DNA from: Eledone cirrhosa
Lineage: Eukaryota
Assembly (NCBI GenBank): GCA_964016885.1
Contig: OZ024742.1
Span: 323,826,001 to 323,890,000, forward strand
DNA: 64,000 nt
Direction of reading: 5' to 3'
The translations under genes were made by a program, and so were the position numbers. Shown piece after piece: positions 17,508 through 64,000 of this stretch (its first letter is position 1; every line of letters starts with the position of its first letter). Under the pieces are notes generated by a model. That model made no database searches. It was not told the DNA's origin and saw only the letters and a program-made list of their open reading frames with translations.

Positions 17508-17510
<3 letters not shown>

Positions 17511-17815: not shown

Positions 17816-17933
17816 GGTGTTTATTTGATATTAACTCTTGAGAAATATTTGAGAACAGAGCAGGATTGTGCTTTTAAATGATGCAATATTGACAGCGGCA
17901 AAGGTCTGTGTGGAAGTGCAGAAGTTTTAGAGC

Positions 17934-17967
17934 AACTAATGAAAAGGCTTTAATATCTAGTCATATA
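17934..17967 (-). promoter_or_regulatory. TATA-like/Inr-like core promoter candidate for the acidic exon (paralogue at 18568-18603)
   Basis: TATATGA at -30 to TTAGTT; in the paralogue TATATAA at -32 to TCAGTT. Confidence 0.35.
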
Positions 17968-18428: not shown

Positions 18429-18464
18429 TCACTCTTCGTCCGTGGCATTCACTTTCTCTGACAT
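18429..18464 (-). pseudogene. Truncated third exon-1 paralogue (MSEKVNATDEE*); duplicate at 28973-29008
   Basis: aataaacaccATG context and about 150 nt upstream are homologous to 17816-17970. The peptide aligns with MAEQVDAEIEQ, then TGA; no phase-0 donor. Confidence 0.55.
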
Positions 18465-19325
18465 GGTGTTTATTTCATTGTAAGTTGTGGGTGATTTCTA
18501 AGCAACAGACCATTGTCGTGTTGAATGATGCAATATTTGCTGTGAAGAAGGGCAACATTTCTAGGGCAACTGATAAAATGCCTTTTTAGTATTTAGTTAT
18601 ATATCCAGTTACATTGAGTTGAAATTCCACTGTTGTTAATTGCCTTCTACCTTCAATTATTCTAAGATCTAGAACACAAGTTCAAACACTTCATAAGTGA
18701 TGACCTTATACAAATGTTAGTTGTCAATATTGGGGTAGACAAAAAAAGGTAGTTTATAGTAAAGCACTGGATTAAATTGATTGATTACAGTGTTTGGCCA
18801 TTCTATATTACATGCCAGGTATTACTTTCCATTTATTTTGTTCTAGTGTTGATAATATTATAAGTACCAGTAATTATATGGTATTGAGTCAAAATAAAAT
18901 CCCATAATTCCAAAATTAACTTTATGACTACTTGTTAAATTCAAGCAGGTAGATTTATAAGAAAATTATCTTTGTAACCTTTGAAAAATGACCAAATCTA
19001 TAGAAATTCATATTTCCTTGTATATACAAAATGTAGAAATTTTGCATCTAGTATACAGAAACCAATATTTCATAGGTAAATATACAAAGTATGCTAGTAA
19101 TATGTATGTATGTATGCATGGACCCGTAACTCCTGGTGAAATTGTAGGGGTACCATAGTAGTGACATATGTCATTTCTTTGGCATTTTAAACATAGCAGA
19201 GCCCATCCCTTTCCATGTCTGAATACAGCAAATTTATTCTGGAGAGAGAGGGGGTGGGGTGGGGGGAGGGGGTTAAGAAAGATATAGAGGAAGAATTTTC
19301 CCCCAGCACTGGACTGGTACTTTAT

Positions 19326-21047
19326 AATAATAATAATAATAATAATAATGAAATATTGTGTACAGTGCTCAGATGCACTACAACTCATCAAAAAGTGTAT
19401 GTATAGTACATAGGGTAATGTACAAACATCAGGAAAATGAACAGTGCATGAGTCATGATACACATGTGTGCATGTGTATGGAAGGGGTACATCAGGTGTA
19501 GTTTTGGCGTATTTCGGGAAGCATGAGTGTCTTAAAGGATGCAGTGTCTCGGCAGCTAACAACTGACGCAGGCAGTTTGTTCCATGCTTCAGCAACTCTG
19601 AGCGTGAAAAAATGTCTACGAAAGTCATGGGAGCTGTGTTGTTTTCTGATTTTGTAGGCATGTCCATGTGTGTTAGACACACGGAGATCAAAAAGGTGCT
19701 CAGGGTTGCAATTGGCGAGATGTCCATTGCCAGACGTCGGAGCTTCAATGAATCCATGCCCAGGGAAGCAAGGCGTTCAGAGTATGGTAGGTGTCTGATG
19801 GAGGGTATGCGCTTGGTTGCACGTCTCTGAACAGTTTCCAGGAGATCAATGTTCTGAGCAAGATAGGGTTTCCAGACTGATGATGCGAATTCCAAGTGTG
19901 GTCGTACCATAGCTGTATACAGTTTTAAATAGATGGCTGGAGAGCGGCTAACAAAGGTCTTGCTGAGTGATGCCAAGACACCCTCGGCCTTCTTGACAAT
20001 CTTAGAGACATGCTTTGTCCAACGCAAATCGCTGCTGACAGTAATGCCCAGGTCACGTTCACAAGAGGACTTCTTGATATCAGTGTTGTGGAGGGAGTAT
20101 GTGGATGCTGGATTTTTCCTCCCAAAATGCATGGTGGTACACTTGTCCACAGCCAGCTTCAGTTGCCAGTCTGTGATCCATTGCTGCATTGTGTCCAGGT
20201 CTGATTGTAGGAAAGAGTTGTAGATTTCAGGATCAGTCCTTTTGATTTCAAGGTACAGCTTGATGTCATCTGCATATTTCAGTACCGTGGCATTCTGTAA
20301 GTTGGCATCTATGTCATTAATATATGCCACAAACAAAAGGGGACCAAGAACTGATTCCTGTGGTACACCAGATGACATCTCATATGGTGAAGAATGCTGT
20401 CCTAGAACCCTGACTACCTCTTTTTGGCTGAGAATGAAGGATTTCAACCAGTCGAAAAGATCATCCCTCACACCCATTGCAGAGAGTTTTGCCATAAGTC
20501 TTTTGTGTGGCACAGAATTAAAAGCCTTAGCAAAGTCAAGGTAAACAACATCCACCCATGAGCCGCTGTCAGTGATCCGGGTGATGTCTTCAAGGAACTC
20601 GATAAGCTGATCACAGCAGCTGGAGTTAGGGATAAATCCAAACTGTGAGGGCCGGATGAGGCTGTGAGAGCTCCAGAAGTTCCAAAGTGTTTCTCTGACA
20701 CAGGATTCCATCAGTTTGGCCATACAGCTAGTAAGACTGACTGGACGATAGTTGACAGGTGACGTGCGGTTGCCCTTTTTGAACAGTGGAATGACACTGG
20801 CAGTTTTCCACTGCTCCGGAGTAGCACCATTGTTGAGACAGTATTGAAAGAAGAAAGAAAGCTGGCGCAAAAGGAAATACCCGCTACGTTTGAGAAGCAG
20901 GTATGTAACACCATCAAGACCAGGGGAGGCATAGTTACGCTTATTCTTAAGGTGACGTCGCAACATTGCAGGTGAAAATTCCATAGTTGTTATGGAATTT
21001 GATGTTAGAGATGGTGGAGATGGTACATTCTGGTTTTCAACTGCAAA
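19326..21047 (-). mobile_element. 5'-truncated CR1/L2-group LINE RT; duplicate at 29870-31591
   Basis: PGLDG, PLFKKG, YRPVSLTS, QFGF, YLDFAKAF, GVPQESVLGPLLF, YADD, RPHLEF; (TAT)n tail; frame disruption near the C-terminus. Confidence 0.92.
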
Positions 21048-22419
21048 GTACTCTATCCAACATACTAACAGCTCTGCCAATTCACTGCCTCACTATTTAT
21101 ATACTTCTACATTATATTTGTAATTAAAATACAACAATCTAGTTTCTATTATTTTATAAGACAACAAGGGCAGTGGACTGGCAGTATCGGTAGAGGGTTG
21201 GACGCCATGCTTTGCAGCATAGAGTTACGGCCCTTTACGGTCTGAATTCAAATCCCACTGAGGTTCACTTTGCCTTTCATCCTTATGGGGTTGATGAAAT
21301 AAAGCACCAGTAATACACTGGGATAATTGCTGGCCTTGTGCCAAAAGTAGAAAATTATTTTAAAAGACAAAACACTACATTATTTAGGATCATCATAATC
21401 ATCATTTCACTTTTATTTTTCATGCTTGTATGGGTTAGATGGGCTGTCAACTACTGATGCCAGATTGGTCACGTGACTATATCCTTACGTTCTGTCTTTG
21501 GTTTGATTTCTATGGTTGGATGCCATTCCTAACACCAGCCACTTTACAGTGTGTACTGGGAGCATTTTATCATGACACCAGCACAACTATTTTACAGAGT
21601 GGGCTGAGTGCATTTTATCATAGCACCAGCACTATCTCATTACAACAATAGAGTACTCAATGTAGTATTGGTCAGGCAAAAATAAGAAATGGGTTCTGTT
21701 ATGCAGTTTATTCTTATCAAAGATTTTAGTACATGAAAGACGACAGCTGTATAAAAAAGTGCAGGGCGATTAGACGGAAGCTATGGAGTAGGAAACCCAG
21801 AAAAACCTGGGACGATTTGATAAATTCTGACCTTACACACTTAACCTCTCCAAGACAATGTCACTGGACCGAGATCTTTGGCGCTACACAGTAATACAGA
21901 AGACCCGTCTTGCCTAAGTACAGTCAGTAGGCACCTCTTAACCAAAAATGACTTAAGTGGGTATACCTCTTCCCTGAATTTGAGGCCTAATGGACATATC
22001 CAAAAAGAAACTTTTAACAATCTACACTATACACTTTGATGAAATAGATTCAGAAATTATGGTTATATAAATCAACTCTAGTCATGAATATGTTGCTATC
22101 CCTATAAACATCAGAAAAAGGATTACATTTGACATCCATATCTTTTTATAATAGAATCACACCTTGGGAGGGAGGGAGGGGTAAATATATGTTATACGAA
22201 TTTGTTAACTCTATTGTGACTGTATTTCTAATTCTTCTTCTGAAAAAAAAAAAAAATTATGCTTGTAAGGGCAGCAAAATTTAGCTCGTTCAGAGTGCCA
22301 GCAACCCTAGGTTTTGTTCTGTCCTTGAATTTCATCCTTCTAAAATCAATATCATGAGTATCATCTAGTACTGGGACCGATTCCTAACACTGTGCCAATG
22401 TTAGGAATTGAATTTGCAT

Positions 22420-25400
22420 TTAACCCTTTCATTACTGTAGCCGGAGGCATTCGGACTTACCTTGCATCTCTCTGGTCCACGTGGGAGTACTTTCCGCTTG
22501 CGTCTGTCTTCGCACGTCCGTAACCTTCGAGGGTGTACGGCTAAGAGGCCCCTGTTGACCGCCTGGTCCCTCGAGTCGCCCCCGTCCTCCTGCTTCTAGG
22601 TCAGGTATCCCCCAACTTCCGGCAATTCTCCCTCCCATGGCCGCTCTACACCCCCTTCCATCTTGCAGCAGCCCCACATGCCCCCCCCCCCTGATCCCAA
22701 GGATCAACCCCCACCACCACCACACTGCTCCATCCACCTAGGTTGGCGGCGGCTCCGTTGCGATCTCCGCACTGTCAGGGCGGCACTTTCCTCTTCCTCG
22801 GAGTCCGTCAGCACAACGACTCTACGGATGCCCAAGACATGACGTGGCATTCTGTCCACAGACATGTTGTTTTGGGAATTTATGGCGGTTACCATTCCCT
22901 TTCCCCATTGAGATGTGCAATGTGTGTTCGGGGGCTTGACCCATACCTCCTCGCCTACTTGTATGAATGCGCTCTCTCTCTCCACCGGCTGCTGTGGTAC
23001 CAAGCGCGGGTGTCGCCATTCATATCTGTATATTGCCCTGTCCCACCCACGGAGACATGTTGTACCAGAACACTGCCTCCTTTGGGGAAATGTGCCCCCT
23101 TTCCGCCATGGCCTTGATCGTGCGATGGTGTCTCTCCACGATCCCATTTCCACTCGGCCTGTATGCCGCTCTGAAGAAACGGTTCACCTTCCACTTGTCA
23201 AGCATTTCCCTCAGTGCCTCCGAGCGAAACACCGTTGTCCATCAGCAGTTCATCCACAGGGCCCCGCTCCAAGAATATGTCTCTCAGCGTCCGCACGATT
23301 TCCTCAGCAGTCCCTGTCTTCCTTTCCCTCCATATCGCCATCCACCCCTGGCCCACAATCGACTATCGAAAGATACATTCCTTGTCGGTAGTGTGTCATG
23401 TCCTCTGCTAATCGCTTCCAGCTGTGCTCCACCGGGATGCTTCCTGTCTCGTGCACATCCGGGGCAGGGTTGATAGACTGGCATCTGTCGCAACCTCCGA
23501 CCACTCTCTGGACACTGTCTGCTAACATCAGAGTCGATTCTTCTGGCTAGGAACAGGGTCCTATCCACCCCATGTGGTGCATGGCGTGCAGTCCCCTCAA
23601 CTCCGAATCACTCAGCCGACACACTGCCGCTATCCCCTTCTCTGCGTCCCCTGGCGTTTCTAGCCAGGCTTTCTTCACCCTGGTTAATACGGCTACCCTG
23701 TTTTTCTCTGAGGGCACAAAAACCACACTCAACTCCAGGCCGAACTCAGTGGACAGCTGTCCCAGAGTTTCCAGGCAGCGCTTTATCAACATTTCTGCTG
23801 CAACTCTTGTTCACACCCTCCTCTCACTGGTAAGCACTGATCTCACCCATCCGAGTACAGTGGCTGAGTCAGTGCGAATTTCTATGGTGCGCAGCCCCCA
23901 TCTCAGGGCGAGATTCACCCCTCTCAGCACAGCATCCAGTTCAGTCACGTTGATGTGGTTGTAGTCCTCCTTCTACCTGAGCCAGGCTGCGTCCTCAACC
24001 TCAACGCCCCCTATCTCCAGAGTGACCCCTAGTGCTATGCTGCTGGCATCACACCATACGGTCCCAATTTGGGGACGTACCAGCATCCTCTCACTGGGTC
24101 ATCCGCTTTTACTCTCTCCACGATTTCCTACATCATGGCCACTGTCCTCTCTCCAACCCTGTCAGCCCAGCTCACTCCATCTGCTCGTCTCTTGACATAG
24201 CTGCATGCCGTCCGGAGCCACCCTGCAATCGGATAGTGGCCCACCAATTTACCACACATTGAGAAGAGTTCCCGTCTATTCATATCGGGGCCCAGTTCCG
24301 GGACTTCATTACCCCTCCGAAACACGAGTGTGCCCGTCTTATCCCTTTGCAACCTCAGTCCTAGCGCGGTTCCTCCTTCCAGCGCCTCCGGCGGTTTCGT
24401 GGTCAGCCCGAACCTTCCCAAGTGGCCTGAGACTTCTGCTGCTGACACCACCGTCCCATCCACCAAGATGTTGTCGATGTAGGAGTTGGTGGGTCCCTTC
24501 ACCTTGTCCGCTTTCCCCAGAATGACCTTGAGGGCCGTCGCCATGATTTTTGGCGCAGAGTTCAACCCGAAGCCAAGCCTGGTCAGGCAGTATGTCTGGC
24601 CCTTATACCTGACCAGCTGATATTTCCACAGTTTCTCATGCACGTGTAACTGCAGATATGCCAACAGTCAACAATCGGGGAGGCCCCCGTCATTCGTCTC
24701 CACTCTCGCAAAGTTTCTCCGCAAACATCTGTGACCTCACCACCTGTGTGGCATGACATGTGTTCGCTCAGCTGACGAAAGTCCAGCACCGGCCTAACCT
24801 TGTCCTTCATGGGCTGCACACTCCACACTTCACCTCCTCCTTCTAAGGAAGCAGTATACCCTCCTCGATCCATCTCTGTACCTCTCCCTCAAACTCGCTT
24901 CTGGCAATTCCTTTCAGGGTGTGCTGATAGCAGCCCACTCTGTTTTTCAGCGTTGGTGGCTCTCCCTTCCAGTACCACTCAACTACCCACCGCTGCCCAT
25001 CGAACACCGCCCTGAAATCCTTGTCCTGTATGGTATTTTCTTCATGGATCGCCCTGTTCTTCGTGGATTCTCCCAGCTCGCTCACAGCACATGATGTCCT
25101 CTCGCTACCAAACGTCACCCCGACTTCAGTCACTGTAACACCTCCAAGGCAGCCAATCGTGTCTATGCCCATTACTACATCGTTCCATCCACCGCCTGGT
25201 CAATCACAATCGCCCAAAACCTAATTTTTCTTCTCTGTACCACCATCGACATCTTGCTGGTACCTCAGCATCTAACCTCCCTGTCGTTGACTGCCCTTAT
25301 ACTGCTCATCCTGCTCCACTTTTTAACCACCTCCGTGGTCACTAGTGTTGTCGTGCAACCCGTGTCCACGAGTGCTCGCGATGGCTTCCCTTCCACCAAA

Positions 25401-28019: not shown

Positions 28020-28054
<35 letters not shown>

Positions 28055-28263
28055 CGTTTTAAAGTGGACAGTTTTATATCCTAAAACCAGGACAGATTCA
28101 AGCAGTTTATTATCAAATGTGTTGCATATATCAAGATTTGCAAGAGTCAGAATTTATAATTGAACAAGCTGGAATTAAAAGTGATATTATACTAGTAGAA
28201 ATATTAGTAATAATAGTAGAAATCATTATTATATTGATATATATATAATTTTTCAAACCTTAC

Positions 28264-28359
28264 TTTTTCTTTTGAAGCTTCCTCTATTTTTAATTTTTCC
28301 ACAATTTGCATTTGATTTTGGATTGCCTGTTCAATTTCTGCATCCACTTGTTCTGCCAT
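28264..28359 (-). CDS. HARS: Second identical copy of the acidic HARS exon-1 variant (inside the tandem duplication)
   Basis: Identical to 17720-17815 at offset +10544. Confidence 0.55.
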
Positions 28360-31300
28360 GGTGTTTATTTGATATTAACTCTTGAGAAATATTTGAGAAC
28401 AGAGCAGGATTGTGCTTTTAAATGATGCAATATTGACAGCGGCAAAGGTCTGTGTGGAAGTGCAGAAGTTTTAGAGCAACTAATGAAAAGGCTTTAATAT
28501 CTAGTCATATATGCACTTATGTCAAGTTTTACTCCTCCCAGAACAATAGAGAAAAGGGGGAGGAGGCTTACAAACCAAAGCCAGCTAGCTATACCACTCC
28601 CATTAAATTGTTTTTTTTATATACAGTTGTTTAAAGTAATATTCCCAATATATTGTGGTTTTTCTGACAGTATGAGTGACCAACTAGGCTAAATAATCAT
28701 TCTCATTCACAATACATTTTTATATCAATAATTGTTTCTACTTTAGGCACAAGGACAGCAATTACCCAGTACATTACTGGTACTTTATTTTATCGACCCC
28801 GTAAGGATGAAAGGCAAAGTTAACCTCGGCGGGATTTGAACTCAGACTGTAAAGGGACGTAACTATGCTAGAAAGCATGGCGTCCAACCCTCTACCGATA
28901 CTGCCAATTCACCGCCCATTTTTATATCAATAATGCAATGCTGGAGTATTGTAGAGTAACTGTTAACATCAGTCACTCTTCGTCCGTGGCATTCACTTTC
29001 TCTGACATGGTGTTTATTTCATTGTAAGTTGTGGGTGATTTCTAAGCAACAGACCATTGTCGTGTTGAATGATGCAATATTTGCTGTGAAGAAGGGCAAC
29101 ATTTCTAGGGCAACTGATAAAATGCCTTTTTAGTATTTAGTTATATATCCAGTTACATTGAGTTGAAATTCCACTGTTGTTAATTGCCTTCTACCTTCAA
29201 TTATTCTAAGATCTAGAACACAAGTTCAAACACTTCATAAGTGATGACCTTATACAAATGTTAGTTGTCAATATTGGGGTAGACAAAAAAAGGTAGTTTA
29301 TAGTAAAGCACTGGATTAAATTGATTGATTACAGTGTTTGGCCATTCTATATTACATGCCAGGTATTACTTTCCATTTATTTTGTTCTAGTGTTGATAAT
29401 ATTATAAGTACCAGTAATTATATGGTATTGAGTCAAAATAAAATCCCATAATTCCAAAATTAACTTTATGACTACTTGTTAAATTCAAGCAGGTAGATTT
29501 ATAAGAAAATTATCTTTGTAACCTTTGAAAAATGACCAAATCTATAGAAATTCATATTTCCTTGTATATACAAAATGTAGAAATTTTGCATCTAGTATAC
29601 AGAAACCAATATTTCATAGGTAAATATACAAAGTATGCTAGTAATATGTATGTATGTATGCATGGACCCGTAACTCCTGGTGAAATTGTAGGGGTACCAT
29701 AGTAGTGACATATGTCATTTCTTTGGCATTTTAAACATAGCAGAGCCCATCCCTTTCCATGTCTGAATACAGCAAATTTATTCTGGAGAGAGAGGGGGTG
29801 GGGTGGGGGGAGGGGGTTAAGAAAGATATAGAGGAAGAATTTTCCCCCAGCACTGGACTGGTACTTTATAATAATAATAATAATAATAATAATGAAATAT
29901 TGTGTACAGTGCTCAGATGCACTACAACTCATCAAAAAGTGTATGTATAGTACATAGGGTAATGTACAAACATCAGGAAAATGAACAGTGCATGAGTCAT
30001 GATACACATGTGTGCATGTGTATGGAAGGGGTACATCAGGTGTAGTTTTGGCGTATTTCGGGAAGCATGAGTGTCTTAAAGGATGCAGTGTCTCGGCAGC
30101 TAACAACTGACGCAGGCAGTTTGTTCCATGCTTCAGCAACTCTGAGCGTGAAAAAATGTCTACGAAAGTCATGGGAGCTGTGTTGTTTTCTGATTTTGTA
30201 GGCATGTCCATGTGTGTTAGACACACGGAGATCAAAAAGGTGCTCAGGGTTGCAATTGGCGAGATGTCCATTGCCAGACGTCGGAGCTTCAATGAATCCA
30301 TGCCCAGGGAAGCAAGGCGTTCAGAGTATGGTAGGTGTCTGATGGAGGGTATGCGCTTGGTTGCACGTCTCTGAACAGTTTCCAGGAGATCAATGTTCTG
30401 AGCAAGATAGGGTTTCCAGACTGATGATGCGAATTCCAAGTGTGGTCGTACCATAGCTGTATACAGTTTTAAATAGATGGCTGGAGAGCGGCTAACAAAG
30501 GTCTTGCTGAGTGATGCCAAGACACCCTCGGCCTTCTTGACAATCTTAGAGACATGCTTTGTCCAACGCAAATCGCTGCTGACAGTAATGCCCAGGTCAC
30601 GTTCACAAGAGGACTTCTTGATATCAGTGTTGTGGAGGGAGTATGTGGATGCTGGATTTTTCCTCCCAAAATGCATGGTGGTACACTTGTCCACAGCCAG
30701 CTTCAGTTGCCAGTCTGTGATCCATTGCTGCATTGTGTCCAGGTCTGATTGTAGGAAAGAGTTGTAGATTTCAGGATCAGTCCTTTTGATTTCAAGGTAC
30801 AGCTTGATGTCATCTGCATATTTCAGTACCGTGGCATTCTGTAAGTTGGCATCTATGTCATTAATATATGCCACAAACAAAAGGGGACCAAGAACTGATT
30901 CCTGTGGTACACCAGATGACATCTCATATGGTGAAGAATGCTGTCCTAGAACCCTGACTACCTCTTTTTGGCTGAGAATGAAGGATTTCAACCAGTCGAA
31001 AAGATCATCCCTCACACCCATTGCAGAGAGTTTTGCCATAAGTCTTTTGTGTGGCACAGAATTAAAAGCCTTAGCAAAGTCAAGGTAAACAACATCCACC
31101 CATGAGCCGCTGTCAGTGATCCGGGTGATGTCTTCAAGGAACTCGATAAGCTGATCACAGCAGCTGGAGTTAGGGATAAATCCAAACTGTGAGGGCCGGA
31201 TGAGGCTGTGAGAGCTCCAGAAGTTCCAAAGTGTTTCTCTGACACAGGATTCCATCAGTTTGGCCATACAGCTAGTAAGACTGACTGGACGATAGTTGAC

Positions 31301-32979
31301 AGGTGACGTGCGGTTGCCCTTTTTGAACAGTGGAATGACACTGGCAGTTTTCCACTGCTCCGGAGTAGCACCATTGTTGAGACAGTATTGAAAGAAGAAA
31401 GAAAGCTGGCGCAAAAGGAAATACCCGCTACGTTTGAGAAGCAGGTATGTAACACCATCAAGACCAGGGGAGGCATAGTTACGCTTATTCTTAAGGTGAC
31501 GTCGCAACATTGCAGGTGAAAATTCCATAGTTGTTATGGAATTTGATGTTAGAGATGGTGGAGATGGTACATTCTGGTTTTCAACTGCAAAGTACTCTAT
31601 CCAACATACTAACAGCTCTGCCAATTCACTGCCTCACTATTTATATACTTCTACATTATATTTGTAATTAAAATACAACAATCTAGTTTCTATTATTTTA
31701 TAAGACAACAAGGGCAGTGGACTGGCAGTATCGGTAGAGGGTTGGACGCCATGCTTTGCAGCATAGAGTTACGGCCCTTTACGGTCTGAATTCAAATCCC
31801 ACTGAGGTTCACTTTGCCTTTCATCCTTATGGGGTTGATGAAATAAAGCACCAGTAATACACTGGGATAATTGCTGGCCTTGTGCCAAAAGTAGAAAATT
31901 ATTTTAAAAGACAAAACACTACATTATTTAGGATCATCATAATCATCATTTCACTTTTATTTTTCATGCTTGTATGGGTTAGATGGGCTGTCAACTACTG
32001 ATGCCAGATTGGTCACGTGACTATATCCTTACGTTCTGTCTTTGGTTTGATTTCTATGGTTGGATGCCATTCCTAACACCAGCCACTTTACAGTGTGTAC
32101 TGGGAGCATTTTATCATGACACCAGCACAACTATTTTACAGAGTGGGCTGAGTGCATTTTATCATAGCACCAGCACTATCTCATTACAACAATAGAGTAC
32201 TCAATGTAGTATTGGTCAGGCAAAAATAAGAAATGGGTTCTGTTATGCAGTTTATTCTTATCAAAGATTTTAGTACATGAAAGACGACAGCTGTATAAAA
32301 AAGTGCAGGGCGATTAGACGGAAGCTATGGAGTAGGAAACCCAGAAAAACCTGGGACGATTTGATAAATTCTGACCTTACACACTTAACCTCTCCAAGAC
32401 AATGTCACTGGACCGAGATCTTTGGCGCTACACAGTAATACAGAAGACCCGTCTTGCCTAAGTACAGTCAGTAGGCACCTCTTAACCAAAAATGACTTAA
32501 GTGGGTATACCTCTTCCCTGAATTTGAGGCCTAATGGACATATCCAAAAAGAAACTTTTAACAATCTACACTATACACTTTGATGAAATAGATTCAGAAA
32601 TTATGGTTATATAAATCAACTCTAGTCATGAATATGTTGCTATCCCTATAAACATCAGAAAAAGGATTACATTTGACATCCATATCTTTTTATAATAGAA
32701 TCACACCTTGGGAGGGAGGGAGGGGTAAATATATGTTATACGAATTTGTTAACTCTATTGTGACTGTATTTCTAATTCTTCTTCTGAAAAAAAAAAAAAA
32801 TTATGCTTGTAAGGGCAGCAAAATTTAGCTCGTTCAGAGTGCCAGCAACCCTAGGTTTTGTTCTGTCCTTGAATTTCATCCTTCTAAAATCAATATCATG
32901 AGTATCATCTAGTACTGGGACCGATTCCTAACACTGTGCCAATGTTAGGAATTGAATTTGCATTTAACCCTTTCATTAC

Positions 32980-35900
32980 TGTAGCCGGAGGCATTCGGAC
33001 TTACCTTGCATCTCTCTGGTCCACGTGGGAGTACTTTCCGCTTGCGTCTGTCTTCGCACGTCCGTAACCTTCGAGGGTGTACGGCTAAGAGGCCCCTGTT
33101 GACCGCCTGGTCCCTCGAGTCGCCCCCGTCCTCCTGCTTCTAGGTCAGGTATCCCCCAACTTCCGGCAATTCTCCCTCCCATGGCCGCTCTACACCCCCT
33201 TCCATCTTGCAGCAGCCCCACATGCCCCCCCCCCCCTGATCCCAAGGATCAACCCCCACCACCACCACACTGCTCCATCCACCTAGGTTGGCGGCGGCTC
33301 CGTTGCGATCTCCGCACTGTCAGGGCGGCACTTTCCTCTTCCTCGGAGTCCGTCAGCACAACGACTCTACGGATGCCCAAGACATGACGTGGCATTCTGT
33401 CCACAGACATGTTGTTTTGGGAATTTATGGCGGTTACCATTCCCTTTCCCCATTGAGATGTGCAATGTGTGTTCGGGGGCTTGACCCATACCTCCTCGCC
33501 TACTTGTATGAATGCGCTCTCTCTCTCCACCGGCTGCTGTGGTACCAAGCGCGGGTGTCGCCATTCATATCTGTATATTGCCCTGTCCCACCCACGGAGA
33601 CATGTTGTACCAGAACACTGCCTCCTTTGGGGAAATGTGCCCCCTTTCCGCCATGGCCTTGATCGTGCGATGGTGTCTCTCCACGATCCCATTTCCACTC
33701 GGCCTGTATGCCGCTCTGAAGAAACGGTTCACCTTCCACTTGTCAAGCATTTCCCTCAGTGCCTCCGAGCGAAACACCGTTGTCCATCAGCAGTTCATCC
33801 ACAGGGCCCCGCTCCAAGAATATGTCTCTCAGCGTCCGCACGATTTCCTCAGCAGTCCCTGTCTTCCTTTCCCTCCATATCGCCATCCACCCCTGGCCCA
33901 CAATCGACTATCGAAAGATACATTCCTTGTCGGTAGTGTGTCATGTCCTCTGCTAATCGCTTCCAGCTGTGCTCCACCGGGATGCTTCCTGTCTCGTGCA
34001 CATCCGGGGCAGGGTTGATAGACTGGCATCTGTCGCAACCTCCGACCACTCTCTGGACACTGTCTGCTAACATCAGAGTCGATTCTTCTGGCTAGGAACA
34101 GGGTCCTATCCACCCCATGTGGTGCATGGCGTGCAGTCCCCTCAACTCCGAATCACTCAGCCGACACACTGCCGCTATCCCCTTCTCTGCGTCCCCTGGC
34201 GTTTCTAGCCAGGCTTTCTTCACCCTGGTTAATACGGCTACCCTGTTTTTCTCTGAGGGCACAAAAACCACACTCAACTCCAGGCCGAACTCAGTGGACA
34301 GCTGTCCCAGAGTTTCCAGGCAGCGCTTTATCAACATTTCTGCTGCAACTCTTGTTCACACCCTCCTCTCACTGGTAAGCACTGATCTCACCCATCCGAG
34401 TACAGTGGCTGAGTCAGTGCGAATTTCTATGGTGCGCAGCCCCCATCTCAGGGCGAGATTCACCCCTCTCAGCACAGCATCCAGTTCAGTCACGTTGATG
34501 TGGTTGTAGTCCTCCTTCTACCTGAGCCAGGCTGCGTCCTCAACCTCAACGCCCCCTATCTCCAGAGTGACCCCTAGTGCTATGCTGCTGGCATCACACC
34601 ATACGGTCCCAATTTGGGGACGTACCAGCATCCTCTCACTGGGTCATCCGCTTTTACTCTCTCCACGATTTCCTGCATCATGGCCACTGTCCTCTCTCCA
34701 ACCCTGTCAGCCCAGCTCACTCCATCTGCTCGTCTCTTGACATAGCTGCATGCCGTCCGGAGCCACCCTGCAATCGGATAGTGGCCCACCAATTTACCAC
34801 ACATTGAGAAGAGTTCCCGTCTATTCATATCGGGGCCCAGTTCCGGGACTTCATTACCCCTCCGAAACACGAGTGTGCCCGTCTTATCCCTTTGCAACCT
34901 CAGTCCTAGCGCGGTTCCTCCTTCCAGCGCCTCCGGCGGTTTCGTGGTCAGCCCGAACCTTCCCAAGTGGCCTGAGACTTCTGCTGCTGACACCACCGTC
35001 CCATCCACCAAGATGTTGTCGATGTAGGAGTTGGTGGGTCCCTTCACCTTGTCCGCTTTCCCCAGAATGACCTTGAGGGCCGTCGCCATGATTTTTGGCG
35101 CAGAGTTCAACCCGAAGCCAAGCCTGGTCAGGCAGTATGTCTGGCCCTTATACCTGACCAGCTGATATTTCCACAGTTTCTCATGCACGTGTAACTGCAG
35201 ATATGCCAACAGTCAACAATCGGGGAGGCCCCCGTCATTCGTCTCCACTCTCGCAAAGTTTCTCCGCAAACATCTGTGACCTCACCACCTGTGTGGCATG
35301 ACATGTGTTCGCTCAGCTGACGAAAGTCCAGCACCGGCCTAACCTTGTCCTTCATGGGCTGCACACTCCACACTTCACCTCCTCCTTCTAAGGAAGCAGT
35401 ATACCCTCCTCGATCCATCTCTGTACCTCTCCCTCAAACTCGCTTCTGGCAATTCCTTTCAGGGTGTGCTGATAGCAGCCCACTCTGTTTTTCAGCGTTG
35501 GTGGCTCTCCCTTCCAGTACCACTCAACTACCCACCGCTGCCCATCGAACACCGCCCTGAAATCCTTGTCCTGTATGGTATTTTCTTCATGGATCGCCCT
35601 GTTCTTCGTGGATTCTCCCAGCTCGCTCACAGCACATGATGTCCTCTCGCTACCAAACGTCACCCCGACTTCAGTCACTGTAACACCTCCAAGGCAGCCA
35701 ATCGTGTCTATGCCCATTACTACATCGTTCCATCCACCGCCTGGTCAATCACAATCGCCCAAAACCTAATTTTTCTTCTCTGTACCACCATCGACATCTT
35801 GCTGGTACCTCAGCATCTAACCTCCCTGTCGTTGACTGCCCTTATACTGCTCATCCTGCTCCACTTTTTAACCACCTCCGTGGTCACTAGTGTTGTCGTG

Positions 35901-38954: not shown

Positions 38955-41900
38955 TATACATGCTGCCGGATGAAAGGGCAAGGACTCCCCCTCTTTGTTT
39001 CGGCCGCGGATGGCCAACATAACCCCAACCCCCTCACCCCTCCCCGCGCCCCACCCACCAAACGCAATCCAAAACTTCAGAGTTGGTACCATGAATGTAG
39101 GCACCTTAAAAGGTCGCTCTAACAAGGTTGTAGAAATGCTTGAACGTAAGGAGGTTGATGTTTGCTGTATCCAAGAGACCAGGTGGAGGGGTGGGCCTGC
39201 TAGATTCATTGTGGGTAAAAAACGATGCTATAAGCTTTTCTGGGTGGGAAATGACAATGGGCTGGGTGGGGTAGGAATCATGTTAGCAGAAAAATGGGTG
39301 GATAAGATAATAGATGTAAATAGAGTGAATGACAGAATAATTAAAATAAGACTTGTTCTAAATAGAACTACTGTGACAGTAATATCTGCATACGCACCCC
39401 AATCCGGACTGCCTGGCACTGTAAAAGACAGATTCTATGAGACACTGATGCTCACTACCTCCCAAATAACTGACAGTGACTATATAATTATTGCTGGCGA
39501 CCTAAATGGTCTTCCAATTCCTTTGGAAGAGGCGGGCTCCTTTGGTGAGAAGATCCATCTGCTGCCAACACCCTTCCAACGGAGGGCTGGGGATGCCGTG
39601 GCTGACGATGCGCAAACACGCGCTAAGGCTGCAGCATCTCTACGTATTCCTCACCGGACAACCGGTGTGGGCCCCGTTCGTGAGGCGAGCTTTCCCACGA
39701 CTCGTCTCGCTGACCGAGCTGCAGTCCTGGGTCAAGCAAAGACCGAGGAAAATGGGCGACAGGCACATCGAATGTGCTCAGGCGCTCACAGTCCTCTGGC
39801 AAGCGGACCCGGCGATCAGTGGAGACTCCACTTCGTCATTCTATAGAGGGTTGATCCGCAGCAAGTGCGACGATGTGCTCGGTGAAACTTTGGGCGTAGA
39901 GGAAGATGAACTGGCCAGTCTGTTCGGGAGGACCTTCCGCCCGGGACCGATGGACAACTTCCAAAAGTCCCTGGCCTGGCAGTGCTACCGAGGAGCTCTA
40001 CCAGTTCGAGACAAGCTCTACAGACATGGGCGTCCGGGCAGGGACCCTGCAAAAAAGATCTGTCCGAGGTGCGTACGAGACGAAGAAACCGTCGCGCACG
40101 CATTCATACACTGCCCGGGCGTCACCGACCTGTGGAGCTATGTGGAACGACTATTGTCGCGGGTGGGACCAATCCAGTTGACCACCGAGTCCATTGTCAT
40201 GATCAAACCGCCACCCTCCTTCAAAAGCGAAGGAGAGGCGGTTTTCCTTTGTGTGATAGCTATGGCGAAAGGTTGTATGGTGGACAAGGTTGAAAGGGCT
40301 GAGGTCAGACACCCTTCTCTCCGGCCAACAACTGATTCTTTTTTTCAAATACCACTTTGGAAGAAGAATCAGGATGGAGAGAGAGGTGCTGTACCCCAGC
40401 AAGTTTTATGAAAGGTGGGTGAAAGTGGCGAGAATGGCCCGAGTGAATGGGCCTTCTCTCTATATCAGCCTGTAGGTTGAGGAAAAAGAGGAGGAGAGGA
40501 AAGGAGTACAAACTCTTCGTACTCCTGGAGATGAAGGTTGCACATTTTTTTTCGGGGGTATGTGTTACCCATATGTAATGTCTCCTCCTATTGGGGAAAA
40601 TCGATTAATTTTTAAATTGCATTTCTGATAATATTTTACACGTTTTTATTGTATGTAAACTTCCCCCTTTGTATTTGTCCCCTTCTTTTGTGCCCCTGTG
40701 GCTAATAAAGAAACATATCTGTAAACACTAACTTCAAAAAACGAGACAATCACTTGATCACCTATAGATCGGGGGAACACACAAGCCAGGTAGATTATAT
40801 CCTTACCAGAAGACGTGTCAGAGTGTCTGTTGTAAACACTAAATCCCTCCCCCATGAAGAATGCACCTCTCAACATAGACTCATAATTAGCGACCTCATA
40901 GTCAGGACGAGACGTACTCGACAACAGAAGAGGACTATCCTCAGGAAAAAAATATGGAAGCTAAAGGACCCCACAGCCAGTAATAAATTTAAAAGCATAT
41001 TACTTGATGCTTTCGACAGTAAGGAAGAGCAATTAGAGTCGTACAATATAGAGGAACAGTGGGAATTCCTGAAAGCTAACCTGCTGAAGGCGACAGATGA
41101 AACCTGTGGCTGGAGCAGCAGACCTATAGGCAGGAGGAGAGTAATGTGGTGGTGGAACAGTAAGGTGGAGGAGTCAATTAAGGCCAAAAAGCAGGCTTGG
41201 AAAGTATGGCGGGATGGGGGAAGTAGAGAAGACTATCAAGTGGCCAGGAGGGAAGCTAGGAGACAAGTGTACTTCGCAAGAAGGGAAGCAGAGGAAAGAA
41301 AGTTCAAGCATGTTCTACAACGCGAGGACCAAAAACGTGAGGTATTCAGGATTGCTAGGCAATGTGTCAAGGAAAACCGTGATATTGTCGGGGAGAAGTG
41401 TGTCCTTAATGATGATGGTGTACTTGCCATCACTGACGCTGATAAGAAGGTAGCTTGGAAGTGTCACTACGAAAGGCTACTAAATGAGGAGAATAAATGG
41501 CAGAAAGACAGTCTCCCCCAAATCGATCCAATAGAGGGACCAGCAGTGTTAGTCGAAGGTAGTATAATAAATAAGGCAATCAAAGATATGAAGACGGGTA
41601 AGGCGGCTGGGCCTTCGGAAACAGTTGCTGAAATGCTGAAAGCTTCTGGAACGGTGGGACACACTATGGTCACCCGGATAGTAAACCAAGTCATACAAAA
41701 TGGGGTTGTTCCGAAGGACTGGCGTAGCAGCATCATCATTAACTGCTACAAGGGTAAAGGAGATGCCCTAGATAGGGGTAACTATAGAGGCATTAAATTA
41801 ATCGACCAGGTCATGAAGGTCACAGAAAAAGTAATAGCGCAATTAATCAGAGAGCGAATTGATCTAGATGAAATGCAGTTCGGGTTTGTGTCAGGTAAAA

Positions 41901-43594
41901 GTACCACAGACGCTCTTTTCATTGTACAACAACTACAGGAGAAGTACCTAGCTAAAAGTAAACCCCTATACTTAGCTTTTGTCGACTTGGAGAAAGCCTT
42001 TGACAGAGTCCCCGTTCCATTATCTGGTGGGCTCTTAGAAAACTAGGTGTTGATGAATGGCTTGTGAGAGCTATACAAGCCATGTATAAAGAAACAGTCA
42101 GCAAGGTTAGAATTAACAACGAATATAGTGAAGAGTTTAGCGTAAAAGTTGGTGTTCATCAGGGCTCCGTTCTTAGCCCCCTACTATTTATTATTGCCCT
42201 TCAGGCTATAACAGAGGAGTTCAAGACCGGCTGCCCATGGGAACTCCTATATGCAGATGATCTAACGCTCATAGCTGAATCAATGGCTGAATTAGAGAAG
42301 AAATTCCAAACATGGAAGCATGGCCTAGAATCAAAAGGCCTTAAAATTAACCTGTCTAAGACTAAAGTTCTAGTTTGTAAGAAGGAAAATAGGGCACTGG
42401 TCCCATCCGGGAAATGGCCATGCTCAGTGTGTAGGAAAGGAGTAGGCAGAAACTCCATTTTATGTCCCAAATACAAAGTATGGGTGCATAAAAGATGTTG
42501 TGGGATCACAGGTAAGCTAACTAAGAATATAGATTTTATATGTGGCCGGTGCTCTGGTGCAATAAGTAGCAGCAAGTGCCCACTGAATACTAGCTCATTC
42601 CATTGCACAGATGGTTCTATAGAAATAGTGGACAGCTTCCGTTACTTGGGTGACAAAATCAGCAGTGGTGGCGGGATGCTCTGAAAGTACAGTAGCTAGA
42701 GTCAGAACTGGATGGAAAAAGTATCAAGAGCTTATACCACTATTAGCCGCTAAAGGGTTCTCTCTAAAAATGAAAGGCAGAATGTATGATGCCTGCATAC
42801 GAACAACAATGTTACATGGCAGTGAGACCTGGGCATTGTGTGCAGAGGATATACGCAGACTGGAGAGGAACGAAGCTTGCATGCTCCGCTGGATGTGTAA
42901 TAGTAATATACGTGAACGGCAAAGCATAAACGAACTAAGGGAAAAATTAGGAATAAGAGGGATCAGATGTTGTTTACTCGAGAGAAGACTACATTGGTAT
43001 GGTCACGTGAAGCGCATGAAAGACGACAGCTGTATAAAAACGTGCAGGGCGATAAAAATAGATGGTAGCCACGGAGTAGGCAGACCCAGAAAAACCTGGG
43101 ACGACTTGATAAATTCCGACCTCACACACTTACACCTCTCCAAGACAATGTCACTGGACCGAGATCTTTGGCGCTACACAGTAATAGAGAAGACCCGCCT
43201 TACCTAAGTACAAAGTGAAACCTACTACAGTCAGTAGGCACTTCTAACAAAAATACACCCCCGTCCCACTACCCCCACCCCATCCACACCACCCCTTTCA
43301 ATGTAAAGTTATGTTGGTGCCACAACATCCAGTCCTAAATAAATGAGATCGTGTAGGTGTCACGACAAAAAAACACACAGTCCACGCTGTAATGTGGCCG
43401 TGTAGGTAACACGGTAAAAACCTCCCAGTCCACACTGTAAACGTAGTTGGTGTTAGGAAGGGCATCCAGCCGTAGAAAACCCGCCAGACAGTCCTATGCG
43501 AGCAAGACAACCACTCTTGCCTCACATGGGAAAACTCCTGTCCAAACCCATGCAATCGTGGCAGATGGACGTTAAACGATGATGATGATGATGA
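38955..43594 (+). mobile_element. Near full-length RTE LINE (APE endonuclease + RT), interrupted and frameshifted, inserted in a TTAA-CCCT MITE (38789-38950/43596-43620)
   Basis: EN: GTMNVGTL, CIQETRW, SAYAPQ, IAGDLNG, SQVDYIL; RT: YKGKGD, NYRGIKL, QFGF, FVDLEKAFDRVP, GVHQGSVLSPLLF, YADD; (GAT)n tail. Confidence 0.95.
39506..40712 (+). mobile_element. 5'-truncated L1/Tx1-like LINE fragment inserted in the RTE endonuclease
   Basis: GGLGMP, ALPVRDKL, zf-RVT-like CPRC...ETVAHAFIHC; GC-rich block ending at AATAAAGAAA. Confidence 0.8.
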
Positions 43595-45558
43595 GAGTAA
43601 TGTAAATGTTAAAGGGTTAAGCAGAACATCAACAGCATCAATTTTACAAATTTCAGAGGACCTAAATTTGCCATCAGTACTGTACCTTCTTTCAAACCAA
43701 ACACATAAAAACAAAAAATAATATTTTTGGCACAAGGCCAGCAATTATCTCAGTATATTACTGGTACTTTATTTTATCGACCTCGTAAGGATGAAAGGTA
43801 AAGTTAACATCGGCGAGATTTGAACTCAGATCATAAAGGGCCGTAACTCTTAGTTGCAAAGCATGGTGTCCGACCCACTACCGATACTGCCAATCCACGT
43901 CTACTGACCAAATATATAGAGATATATTTTCTTTATTTTCATTTGTTAATATTTTATATTCTCTTTTTGGTTAATATTGGATTAAATCATCATCATCATT
44001 TAATATCTTTTTTACCTGCTAGCAAGGTTTGAGCAGGTCATCATTGATCATGTCAACACTTAATCACAGCTACTGAACTCTCAGATGGGCCAGGTGCTTG
44101 CATCTTGCTTGCACTAGGGAAGATGTCAGTTATTTACTCAACTGAAGAGCCCTCTCTACCCTATAGAGGGAACATTGAGCAGATGTGGGATAAGAAGGAT
44201 GATAAGTATGATGTCATAGGTATATAATAAATGTGGTGAGGTGGTAGGATTTGGGAGGGTAATAGAATAGAAATAGGAGAGGTGACACAGCAAAGACTTT
44301 TTATTTATGAGCTTGTAAATTTATGATTTGCTTATATTTTCCAAAGCTGATCTTAATTCTTTTGTGAACATTTTTTTCTAATGAAATACATTTTATTTCA
44401 ATTAATTAATAAAAGGATTTGAAGAATTTGCGAAAGTATTTAATTATTAAGATAGCAATTTAACATATAGTTCTTATATAAAATTATGTTGAAAGATTTT
44501 AATTTAAATAGGAATCTAAGCAACTATGAAGCTTTTCAGGACCTCCAGCACTGGTGAGAGGAATTCAAGAATCACCCACAGACTGTAGACCTGGCCTGAA
44601 TTCTTTAATGGCACCCAAGGATCAGGCAGAAGTGATAAACTGAGCAACTGATAAATCTATTACACAAGAACAGATTCGCACAGTTTTTATTGACCAAATT
44701 TCAGAAAAAGTTTTTGTCAATTGACCAATGTGATGTACAGTGGGATCATGTATACCTAATTTGAAATCAGAATATAACCTAGACAAGTAGCTCTGCATCT
44801 TGGCACTCTACAATTTCTACCAACACACTACTCTTTGTTATATAGAATATTGATTTCTTACATAGCACCAAGGCCACAAATTTGAGGAGAACAGTATAAA
44901 TGATTACATTGACCCCTGTATTTGACTGGTATTTATTACAGATAAAAGGCAAAGTTGAACTCAGTGTGATTTGAATTCAGAACATAAAGCAATGTAACTA
45001 AATATCAGCAGGAATTTTGTCCATCCTATTGGTCAAGCATTTCTGCCAATTCACTGCTTTTCTTACATAAAATATTGATATATAAGCATTGATATATAAA
45101 TGCTAAAAAAAAATTGGTTTTATTTTTAAAGAAGCTATTTTCTAATAAGAGTGTGTTGTTATTATCTTTAACATTTAATGTTTATTTGCATTGCTGTAGC
45201 CCTCTAAAACACACACTATTCACTTCTTTTCTAATTTTATTAATATTTGAAAAATAAGATCAAATGTAGATATTATACATATATTCATAAAATCTGCATT
45301 TTTTTTCTTTACTCAAACTTGAGTAAGACTAAACCTATTCTAAATTAGTAGTAAATCCTTGGTTTTCAGGCTGTTATTAAAAACTAAATAAAATAATACA
45401 GGTGACCATAGTGTAAATATATATAGCTTAAACTCCAGCAGAAATTCTCTATATCTTGTTTCTATTTTCAGTTGTTATTCACTCCCTTTATTGACTTTGA
45501 AGATTTGAACATCTTTTGAACCATCAATATGTGAAGGTGATCATTCTGTCTACAGTCA

Positions 45559-46380
45559 ATGGTGGCATCAAACAGACTATGGCTTACTAGAAGTAGGCCA
45601 TTTGCTATATATATAATACGTGGACATTCTTCTGTCAATAGCCCAGCAAATTTAATTTACATTTTGCCAGACACAAACCCTGAGAAGATACCATTTTTAT
45701 GTCAATATCAACGTGTCTTCAATTTAACAAGATTCAACATTCCAAACTTACAACAGAATTCAGCGAAACTACGCAGACCAGAACTAAAAGTAGATGATGC
45801 TCATCTCTTCTATACACCACAGCTGGCTCTTTCTTTCAATAATAATATCAGACAACTAGAAATTCAGTATTCAATATTGAAAAAAATATTTGAAGTTATT
45901 TCTTCAATTTACTGCAAGAATCCATTGTTGTTGCTAGATATTGCATGTGGTACTGGAGTGAGTGCTGAAAATTTTGCTCCAAACAATTGCTATCTTATTG
46001 GCACAGACATTAGTATGTCGATGTTGTCTATGGCAGTGAAAAAGAGGTCTTTAAAGAATTGTGATTATCTCCAGCTTGACAACAGTCACAAACTCCCCTT
46101 TCGCCCAAATTGTTTTGATGTTGTCACCAGTATCTCTTTTTTACAGTGGCTATTAGTTAGAAAAGATTCCAACTGCATTCTACAAAGATTTTATTCTTTT
46201 GTTTCACATGTTTTAAAGCCCGGTGGACAATTTTTGCTCCAATTCTATGCAAGGAACATTTCTGATGTTCAACTAGCTTTGAATTTATCTTCAGAAGTTT
46301 TCCGAGGAGCCTTGTTTTCTTGTAAACCACATCCTAGACGAGGGTTGAAGCTTTTCCTGTTTCTCTATAAAGAAAATTAA
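45559..46380 (+). CDS. BUD23-like: Class I SAM-dependent methyltransferase, divergent BUD23/WBSCR22 (rRNA guanine-N7) family member, single-exon CDS
   Basis: 273 aa; colinear BUD23 hallmarks RRPE..LFY..IQ, LLDIACGTG (motif I), GTDISMSML, LPFRPNCFD, SISFLQWL, VLKPGG..LQFY, FRG..P..KLFLFL. AATAAA follows the stop (46382-46387); upstream acceptor-like sites at 45471 and 45555. Confidence 0.8.
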   Translation: MVASNRLWLTRSRPFAIYIIRGHSSVNSPANLIYILPDTNPEKIPFLCQYQRVFNLTRFNIPNLQQNSAKLRRPELKVDDAHLFYTPQLALSFNNNIRQLEIQYSILKKIFEVISSIYCKNPLLLLDIACGTGVSAENFAPNNCYLIGTDISMSMLSMAVKKRSLKNCDYLQLDNSHKLPFRPNCFDVVTSISFLQWLLVRKDSNCILQRFYSFVSHVLKPGGQFLLQFYARNISDVQLALNLSSEVFRGALFSCKPHPRRGLKLFLFLYKEN

Positions 46381-46907
46381 TAATAAACATTTTTCTTAAA
46401 CATCATTTTTTTTGCCTTTGGTAATTTTAACATCCTGTACTGCACGAAAGTATTCTTAAAAAGTACAAAACAACATCATGACTTCATGTTAAAAGTTAAA
46501 GTCTCTATTCTAATACTGCACATTTTCACAACAATCTGTCCATTAGTGAAGATACCATATGTAAACATTTGAATTAATAAATCTGCTTTTAGATATTTTC
46601 TGCTAAATCATTACAAGATGTTAAGAGTTAATAAATTTTAATATTTGTTGCTATAGGAGCAAAATCACTTTTACAGTTTTCCTACAGCTAACAACTTAAC
46701 TATAAAAAAGAATGAAATATTTCAGCAAGCAAGATTAAAACTAGCGAAGCTAATTATCTTAGTGTGGTAAATACATTGTGGATAAAGTATGTCAACAATA
46801 AAAGCCATTATATTTAGATAACAGTGAAGTTAATATTGTGGCAGAGAGGCAATTTAGGTTTGATTCCCAGTTATACATGATTCCCATTTATCCATTGTCT
46901 TACTTCA

Positions 46908-62160: not shown

Positions 62161-62283
62161 CGCTTAACAATTAAGTTAAAAATGTACATCCACATATGTA
62201 TATATATACTGAAATATTCATATGCATACTAGTATTTCAGTATACATATGTGGATGTACATTTTTAACTTAATTGTTTAAGCG
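62161..62283. repeat. About 120-bp palindrome with a direct partial copy at 61702-61765
   Basis: CGCTTAACAATTAAGTTAAAAATGTACATCCACATATG...CATATGTGGATGTACATTTTTAACTTAATTGTTTAAGCG. Confidence 0.9.
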
Positions 62284-62289
62284 TCAGTC

Positions 62290-63562
<1,273 letters not shown>

Positions 63563-64000
63563 CAATCTTTGAGGTGTGGGGTCAACTGGAAAGCTTCCAT
63601 TACTCATACTTCTCGCCTTCATCACTACCTCTTCTACGGCCTCGATATGAATACCCCCTCCGCCTCCGTGGTATTTTCTTCGTGGTTATAAGAGGCTTAG
63701 CTCTGTTTCTCGACCGTTATATCGCGTGACTATCTCCCCCTCCGCCTTTTGGGATTCTTTCTCACGTCGTGTAGACGCGTTCTTGAGACTAGTAAAATGA
63801 GGTATCCTCTTGATAAGTCGGCAGACCTCGCAAGGACTCTATATCTTTGATATATTGTTTTTGTTTATGCCACGAAACTACGTAGTCGAGGAATTTAGGA
63901 ACAGTTTAGGTATGATACATTTTATTACTAATTATATCTAAATGTTTCTTCTCTCTTCATAATGTATTTTTTACTCTGATACTGGTTCAGTCTAGTTCAA

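Follow-up and report, generated by a model that had tools for sequence, protein, structure and literature searches.

A second, tail-less BUD23-type methyltransferase gene in the octopod Eledone cirrhosa, with predicted mitochondrial import and a candidate tRNA target

A 64-kb stretch of the Eledone cirrhosa genome, which lies on contig C3 and is called the window throughout, contains an uninterrupted reading frame of 273 codons that runs from ATG to TAA at positions 45559-46380 of the forward strand and encodes a methyltransferase related to BUD23. The gene is almost certainly a functional and conserved paralogue. Judged from its sequence, the protein is a new architectural variant within the BUD23 family and not BUD23 itself, in that a leader and a module of 45 residues (the N-module) precede the core and nothing follows it. 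The reading that we put forward, tentatively, is that of a second BUD23-type gene whose product has a predicted mitochondrial location. Its most likely activity there would be to methylate the N7 of a guanine in mitochondrial RNA, for which G34 of the mitochondrial tRNA-Ser(GCU) is the best candidate.

Sequence, predicted fold and transcript of the Eledone gene

A preliminary description of this DNA, made by a model from the letters and the translated frames, had reported an intact BUD23-like frame of 273 amino acids amid DNA dense in transposable elements, and both the frame and the transposon open reading frames (ORFs) around it are present. Frames of such length are expected about 0.0016 times per 64 kb, counting both strands, at the base composition of the window. 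Pfam matches the protein only to generic class I methyltransferase families (for example Methyltransf_11, E-value 4.4e-15). In a phmmer search of the PDB, the five best chains are all BUD23 proteins: residues 71-270 match residues 5-205 of human BUD23 (7wtw_q) at 1.1e-20, yeast Bud23 (4qtt_B) is matched at 1.5e-18, and the best non-BUD23 chain reaches 2.8e-8.

An AlphaFold2 model built on a 50-row alignment has a mean predicted local distance difference test score (pLDDT) of 88.1 and a predicted template modelling score (pTM) of 0.84. Residues 1-30 have pLDDT values of 46-61, with a helix at residues 6-24, and residues 31-60 have values of 94-97, with a strand at residues 32-35; the seven-stranded core is complete. 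Foldseek places human BUD23 in pre-40S particles and yeast Bud23-Trm112 at the top of its ranks, with E-values of 2e-18 to 4e-16, template modelling (TM) scores of 0.86-0.89 and root-mean-square deviations of 2.3-2.7 Å (6g4w_q, E-value 2.1e-18, TM 0.89; 4qtu_B, 2.7e-18), and the next fold follows at 1e-11, seven orders of E-value behind BUD23. The earlier assignment to BUD23 is thus borne out by both sequence (1.1e-20) and predicted fold (TM 0.89). Other details of that description also stand: the RRPE motif, read directly in the translation, is internal at residues 72-75; residues 1-37 contain R6, R11, R13 and R21 and neither Asp nor Glu, the first acidic residue being D38; the chain stops at residue 273, three residues past a predicted last strand at 264-270; and PF12589 (WBS_methylT), the C-terminal tail that had been described as missing, is unmatched in the protein by the Pfam scan.

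The residues D127, G131, D150, S191, W197, Q228, Y230, P257 and K264 are invariant in the 50 family and canonical BUD23 rows of the alignment, and R73, P74 and E75 of the RRPE motif are at least 90% conserved in it. In 49 family and canonical rows, 35 columns are at least 85% conserved, of which the window protein keeps 32. The three deviations are I110, which is common to octopods, G129A in motif I, and P231A, in which Ala replaces the Pro of the QFYP motif. The last two are found only in Eledone, the three other octopod rows keeping G and P, and no read variant is seen at either position. Because other family members deviate at 0-8 of the 35 columns, the Eledone substitutions do not indicate decay; Ala at the first glycine of motif I also occurs in active methyltransferases. 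The catalytic residues of BUD23 appear to be kept in the window protein, and the N7-guanine chemistry is presumably retained.

The closest known system is BUD23/WBSCR22, which together with TRMT112 acts on the N7 of a guanine in 18S ribosomal RNA (rRNA). The likeness comprises the class I core (30-35% identity, at the TM scores given above), the position of the RRPE motif immediately ahead of the first core helices, and the SISxxQW and QxYP motifs. In contrast to BUD23, the window protein has 72 extra N-terminal residues (a leader of 30 residues and the module of 45), lacks the basic WBS_methylT tail, and is encoded by a single coding exon, whereas the canonical gene has at least ten.

The transcript was assessed with four sequencing runs (X1-X4) from one study, for which the library kind is not on record. 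Contigs of X1-X3 run unbroken across 44487-46538 and behave as genomic DNA would. Run X4 comprises 87.8 million letters, equal to 0.03x of the 3.0 Gb genome, and has a depth of approximately 5 over 45471-46557 and of 0 over 45350-45437. Three overlapping X4 contigs cover the gene; one of 813 nt matches 45471-46211 and carries a further 72 nt that are unlike the window beyond the AG at 45470/71, and the remaining two cover 46188-46360 and 46332-46557. No sequence variants are observed in the coding sequence (CDS) in X1-X4. We take X4 to be a library of expressed sequences and infer a further, non-coding exon upstream in the mRNA. The departure of the X4 contig from the genome at this AG indicates that the transcript probably has an intron in its 5′ untranslated region (UTR), and the gene is probably transcribed. 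The term "intronless" of the preliminary description is therefore correct for the coding sequence and probably incorrect for the transcript.

The same contig bears on the start of the protein. TGA codons at 45532 and 45538-45540, downstream of the acceptor at 45471, share the reading frame of the ATG at 45559, which means that an upstream coding exon cannot extend the protein in the observed transcript form. The preliminary description had allowed that an upstream coding exon spliced at 45555 might make the leader internal; for that transcript form, this is excluded by the in-frame stops and by the X4 contig, which continues unbroken across the alternative acceptor at 45555. Downstream of the start, the first further in-frame Met is residue 153. 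In the observed transcript form, the Met at 45559 is the true start and the leader is the genuine N-terminus. A minimal upstream ORF (ATG-TGA) lies at 45529-45534; it shares the frame of the main ATG, which follows 30 nt downstream and has a T at position -3. The parts of the gene are listed in Table 1.

Table 1. Features of the gene and of its upstream flank, in positions of the window
Feature	Position	Strand	Basis
Probable splice acceptor AG after a polypyrimidine tract; exon begins at 45472	45470..45471	+	Break of X4 contig; sequence read
5′ UTR part of the coding exon	45472..45558	+	Sequence read
Complete CDS of a BUD23-like S-adenosylmethionine-dependent methyltransferase, 273 codons and TAA	45559..46380	+	Homology; AlphaFold2 model
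Leader, residues 1-30, presequence-like	45559..45648	+	4 basic and 0 acidic residues; low-confidence helix 6-24
Family-specific N-module, residues 31-75 (NLIYILPDT...FNIPNL...RRPE), ending in RRPE	45649..45783	+	Alignment of 28 members
Class I methyltransferase core, residues 76-273, seven strands	45784..46377	+	Pfam; phmmer; AlphaFold2; Foldseek
Motif I, LLDIACGTG	45931-45957	+	Sequence read
3′ UTR, with AATAAA at 46382-46387 and 46576-46581	46381..46581	+	X4 contigs; signals located
Upstream flank with non-LTR retrotransposon fragments (endonuclease, zf-RVT, reverse transcriptase, PHD), outside the gene	38974..43204	+	Pfam

A tail-less family and its relation to canonical BUD23

The nearest proteins are those of Octopus vulgaris (79% identity, 274 aa), a further octopod relative (75%, 275 aa) and Argonauta hians (69%, 274 aa). 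An exhaustive HMMER search yielded 2109 matches at E ≤ 0.001, and the family was drawn from the best 150 of these. In family rows the alignment begins at query residues 6-37 and the protein stops at most 7 residues beyond the core, and canonical rows align with their own residue 3 at query residue 73 and have tails of 55-130 aa. Names were looked up for 30 family rows, and 13 clusters bear no taxon name. The named members include the gastropods Patella caerulea, Haliotis cracherodii, H. rufescens, Gigantopelta aegis, Physella acuta, Lymnaea stagnalis, Aplysia californica and Plakobranchus ocellatus, the bivalves Mytilus trossulus and M. californianus, the annelid Owenia fusiformis and the trematode Dicrocoelium dendriticum. 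Their database labels are "uncharacterized" or "bud23-like", and the Aplysia record is labelled "7SK snRNA methylphosphate capping enzyme". Heterobranch members (P0017, P0018, P0021-P0023, P0027 and P0031, with Aplysia, Lymnaea and Plakobranchus among them) match the query in 2-3 stretches and are longer, at 348-388 aa, since their methyltransferase core contains an insertion. No paper on a tail-less BUD23-like family was found in the literature searched.

The members share one build, consisting of a variable leader, the 45-residue N-module and the BUD23 core, and the C-terminal tail of canonical BUD23 is missing in all of them. The leader usually has 17-46 residues and cannot be aligned between genera. 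In the leaders of 28 members (873 residues), Asp and Glu make up 4.5%, compared with 9.0% in the rest of the proteins, and Lys and Arg make up 17.2%, compared with 11.8%; the binomial p-values of 2e-7 (acidic) and 2e-6 (basic) overstate the case because the rows are related and not independent. The window leader of 30 residues contains 4 Arg or Lys, no Asp or Glu and 6 Ser or Thr, with spaced Arg among hydrophobic and hydroxylated residues and no Lys/Arg cluster; the net charge of the whole protein is +15. The presequence-like character noted earlier for the N-terminus therefore recurs, in composition, in the leaders of its relatives.

The N-module shows a constant order of a hydrophobic strand, (P/K/N)xT, a second hydrophobic patch, a basic GG turn and RRPE, and it has no meaningful match to any Pfam family or PDB chain. 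Between Octopodidae and Argonauta, identity is 17-20% in the leader, 73-80% in the N-module and 68-73% in the core. Such uneven constraint, together with intact frames of equal length, argues for purifying selection, as far as sequence comparison goes.

Two other readings were rejected. By eye, the octopod ILPDTNPEKIPF...NIPNL resembles CPETDKKFPIKNGIPNML of the last exon of TRMT112, which raised the idea of a built-in TRMT112 mimic. However, a profile of 21 module sequences finds no Trm112 chain in the PDB (the best chain is FANCL, E-value 0.11), Trm112p of Pfam matches none of the 21 members, and comparison with the TRMT112 exon of Eledone itself gives an hhalign probability of 0.8% and a BLASTP E-value of 0.37, so the idea is rejected at the level of sequence. 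Plant rows with N-terminal extensions (Dendrobium and Striga) are not members, as they nest within plant canonical BUD23.

Searched with a canonical BUD23, the Eledone genome yields the window gene and, on another chromosome (C1), matches the size of exons. There, tblastn over 40 kb finds the canonical BUD23 gene of Eledone as at least 10 colinear exon matches at C1:322506570-322533084 on the reverse strand, two of which correspond to exons of the basic C-terminal tail. The window gene is therefore a paralogue, as had been proposed, and not the sole BUD23 of the genome, a possibility that would have spoken against the proposal. A profile search of the genome with PF12589 gives no match, a result that is uninformative since tblastn did match the tail exons.

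In a tree of 71 rows, all 35 canonical rows and 7 others stand on one side of a branch with a support of 99, and the family stands on the other. A family clade of 22 rows, in which all named rows are from molluscs, has a support of 97, and the four octopods group together at 99. When short BUD23-like rows of approximately 200 aa are included as an outgroup, the family is placed between this outgroup and the canonical eukaryotic clade (95). The family thus lies outside the canonical eukaryotic clade in both analyses, on branches that are 5-10 times longer; terminal branches measure 1-2 changes per column in the family versus 0.1-0.3 in canonical rows. A tree constrained to unite the family with metazoan BUD23 is worse by 19.3 log-likelihood units, with a p-value of 0.030 in the approximately unbiased (AU) test, a marginal rejection in which long branches are involved and the tested group was named after the tree had been seen. 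The missing basic tail, the placement outside animal BUD23 and the presence of a second gene in the genome all speak against canonical orthology.

The nearest clusters in the ESM Atlas are Asgard and eukaryotic BUD23 clusters, and no cluster of the tail-less family is found there. The Asgard Bud23-family methyltransferases resemble the window protein as tail-less BUD23-like cores of approximately 200 aa and are among the nearest language-model clusters (0.97); they differ in having neither a leader nor an N-module.

The preliminary description had called for a phylogeny and a taxonomic range, and these place the canonical copy elsewhere and extend the family across molluscs, an annelid and a fluke. 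The retro-duplication that it had suggested is not upheld as a recent event, since the same architecture is present in gastropods, Mytilus, the annelid and the trematode, and the duplication must be at least as old as Spiralia. The CDS is uninterrupted, the parent gene has at least 10 exons, and the family is older than the divergence of molluscs, annelids and flatworms; an ancient retroposition is a possible origin of the tail-less family. Both an ancient paralogue and a fast-evolving spiralian duplicate would fit the trees, which do not tell the two apart.

Predicted mitochondrial import and candidate target

In the mechanism proposed here, a duplicate of BUD23 would have lost the ribosome-docking tail and gained an import leader and a new N-terminal module. 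The variable basic leader would serve as a cleavable presequence with which the enzyme is imported into mitochondria, and the N-module would replace the role of the lost tail, presumably substrate docking. The enzyme would be repurposed from rRNA to a tRNA anticodon, such that G34 of the mitochondrial tRNA (mt-tRNA)-Ser(GCU) is methylated to 7-methylguanosine (m7G34), which would let this single tRNA read all four AGN codons, with AGA and AGG as Ser. That the gene family as a whole is the m7G34 writer for the mt-tRNA-Ser(GCU) of invertebrates is a possible but rather doubtful extension of this proposal.

The modification m7G34 is the textbook explanation for AGA and AGG as serine codons in invertebrate mitochondria, and it was reportedly found in the mt-tRNA-Ser(GCU) of squid and starfish in 1998. 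Passages of a 2018 review describe it in the squid Loligo bleekeri and in starfish, where the tRNA reads AGA/AGG in addition to AGU/AGC; in the same passages, the gene "for anticodon m7G of mt tRNA" is given as not identified and appears as "?" in Table 1 of the review (PMC6320965). The cephalopod mitochondrial DNAs (mtDNAs) then known are stated, in part of an earlier paper, to all use GCT and to be expected to be modified likewise (PMC1544340). Among the matches of the full-text literature search, the term m7G34 is in no title or abstract.

The mitochondrial contig of Eledone (C1796, 16,147 bp) contains trnS(gct) and trnS(tga) and no other tRNA gene for AGN codons. Its ORFs of at least 90 codons, a set that may include one or two spurious frames, contain 76 AGA and 17 AGG codons, that is, 93 AGR codons in 3325; 43 of the AGR codons are in cox1, nad1 and nad5 alone. 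As trnS(gct) is the sole AGN tRNA and AGR codons are in use, the organism needs an m7G34 activity.

Two observations on mitochondrial sequences stand apart from this argument. With aragorn -mt, C1796 yields 25 tRNA-like genes as against 22, the extras being a second trnI(gat), a second trnQ(ttg) and a trnN(att), which are either false calls or duplicated genes near non-coding regions. Additionally, nuclear copies of cox1 (numts) are present at C2:345136945-345138289 and C2:115164123-115165043; in one, which is almost complete, the only stops are TGA, and the other is degraded, with TAA and TAG stops.

The distribution of the family among bivalves was compared with that of the anticodon. Part of a study of bivalve mtDNAs reports that most marine bivalves have a UCU anticodon in tRNA-Ser(AGN) and that Mytiloida have GCU, for which its authors speculated on m7G34 (PMC3022732). 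Among the best 150 of the 2109 matches, the named bivalve members are only the two Mytilus species, and the canonical BUD23 of Mercenaria and Mizuhopecten did turn up in the searches. The restriction to Mytilus may weakly fit the GCU anticodon of Mytiloida.

Canonical BUD23 pairs with TRMT112 through its β3 edge strand. TRMT112 is described as the obligate partner of BUD23 in parts of PMC5372719 and as imported into human mitochondria with TRMT11 in parts of PMC13539109, which makes a mitochondrial BUD23-like holoenzyme with TRMT112 conceivable. The TRMT11-TRMT112 system is similar to the one proposed here in that, according to the same parts of the latter paper, a TRMT112-dependent methyltransferase is imported by N-terminal signals and modifies mt-tRNA (PMC13539109); it differs in belonging to the THUMP-domain family, in its mark (m2G10) and in the dual localisation of one gene, without a dedicated paralogue. 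METTL1-WDR4, Trm8-Trm82 and TrmB, as covered in part of PMC6320965, share the m7G chemistry on tRNA but represent another methyltransferase family that acts on position 46 and not 34, and no similarity to them was detected in the window protein. A profile search of the genome with PF02390 (METTL1/TrmB) yields nothing at E ≤ 0.001; for a split gene, this negative carries no information.

Two copies of the final TRMT112 exon are present in the Eledone genome (Trm112p, 27.8 bits each), at C20:29447581-29447733 on the reverse strand and at 29635279-29635431 on the forward strand. The two copies lie approximately 188 kb apart in opposite orientation and may represent two TRMT112 genes or a duplicated segment. 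The first exon was not found within 1.5 kb of either last exon, and in a database search this last exon retrieved nothing but a read-through fragment of 165 aa.

Several points weigh against mitochondrial import with tRNA-Ser(GCU) as the target. The known substrate of BUD23 is rRNA, not tRNA. The phyletic match rests on the best 150 of 2109 matches, and the clusters without a taxon name may include bivalves; no named echinoderm member is present among these 150, though starfish have m7G34. The leader is nearly absent in Mytilus (4 aa) and Gigantopelta (4 aa) and absent in P0030, although these members may be truncated gene models. The mitochondrial localisation is a prediction from the composition and evolution of the leader, and the basic N-terminus could instead serve in RNA binding or, the tail being gone, in import into the nucleus or nucleolus. 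In addition, G129A and P231A hit positions that are at least 90% conserved in the 50-row alignment, so that the activity of the Eledone allele is putative, and no RNA run is on record for the window, the RNA nature of X4 being deduced from its contigs.

In a second explanation, the gene encodes a nuclear or cytosolic BUD23 paralogue whose leader and N-module bind RNA or direct nucleolar import in the tail's stead. Its target would be a guanine in another cytosolic RNA, or 18S rRNA in tissues such as the germ line, in which many intronless duplicates act. The retained BUD23 core and RRPE motif, the strongly basic overall charge and the family members without a leader are all consistent with this explanation, which we consider unlikely but a serious contender. 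However, the leader evolves fast and yet keeps its composition, which is typical of import presequences and not of RNA-binding or nuclear localisation segments, and its Arg residues are spaced and not clustered. Moreover, canonical BUD23 is already present for 18S rRNA.

The leader serves equally well as evidence for a mitochondrial enzyme with another substrate, namely the small-subunit mitochondrial rRNA (mt-rRNA), at the counterpart of 18S G1575/G1639, or another mt-tRNA position. Animal mt-rRNA is not known to contain m7G, a cephalopod has m7G34 as a documented orphan mark, and the family lacks the tail that BUD23 uses on pre-ribosomes; together these make such a substrate improbable, although the parent enzyme is a small-subunit rRNA methyltransferase, as described in parts of PMC5372719. 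A decaying or non-functional retrocopy that lies among transposons by chance is very improbable: the intronless CDS in transposon-dense DNA and the two Eledone-specific substitutions at near-invariant positions would suit it, but the frame is intact and of about equal length in four octopods, the family is preserved in several phyla, the protein is unevenly constrained along its length, the spliced contig suggests transcription, and the expected number of chance frames this long is far below one per window.

Surroundings of the gene and significance of the family

No second host gene was recognised among the 62 flanking ORFs of the window that were scanned, and the matches in them are to RVT_1, Exo_endo_phos, zf-RVT, PHD or DUF7047. 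The retrotransposon flank listed in Table 1 has a very high read depth in all runs. A tandem direct duplication of approximately 10.5 kb extends over 17300-38400 of the window, in which 17501-22500 is 100% identical to 28045-33044 at an offset of 10544 and the repeated ORFs continue at an offset of 10545. Each copy contains a reverse-transcriptase ORF of 693 aa (19008-21089 and 29552-31633), and the duplication is either a very recent event or an assembly artefact. Near the end of the window, approximately 1.4 kb at 62268-63729 are open in all six frames, with ORFs of 301-482 aa on both strands and no Pfam match; this region is probably a simple or low-complexity repeat.

The window gene provides a concrete nuclear candidate for the orphan m7G34 writer, as it belongs to an N7-guanine methyltransferase family, has an import-type leader and is found in a cephalopod whose mtDNA needs the activity. 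If the proposed tRNA target should fail, there would still be a hitherto undescribed family of BUD23 relatives that is conserved in several phyla and has a new N-terminal module. If it should hold, the family would supply the long-missing writer behind the reassignment of AGA and AGG to Ser in the invertebrate mitochondrial code.

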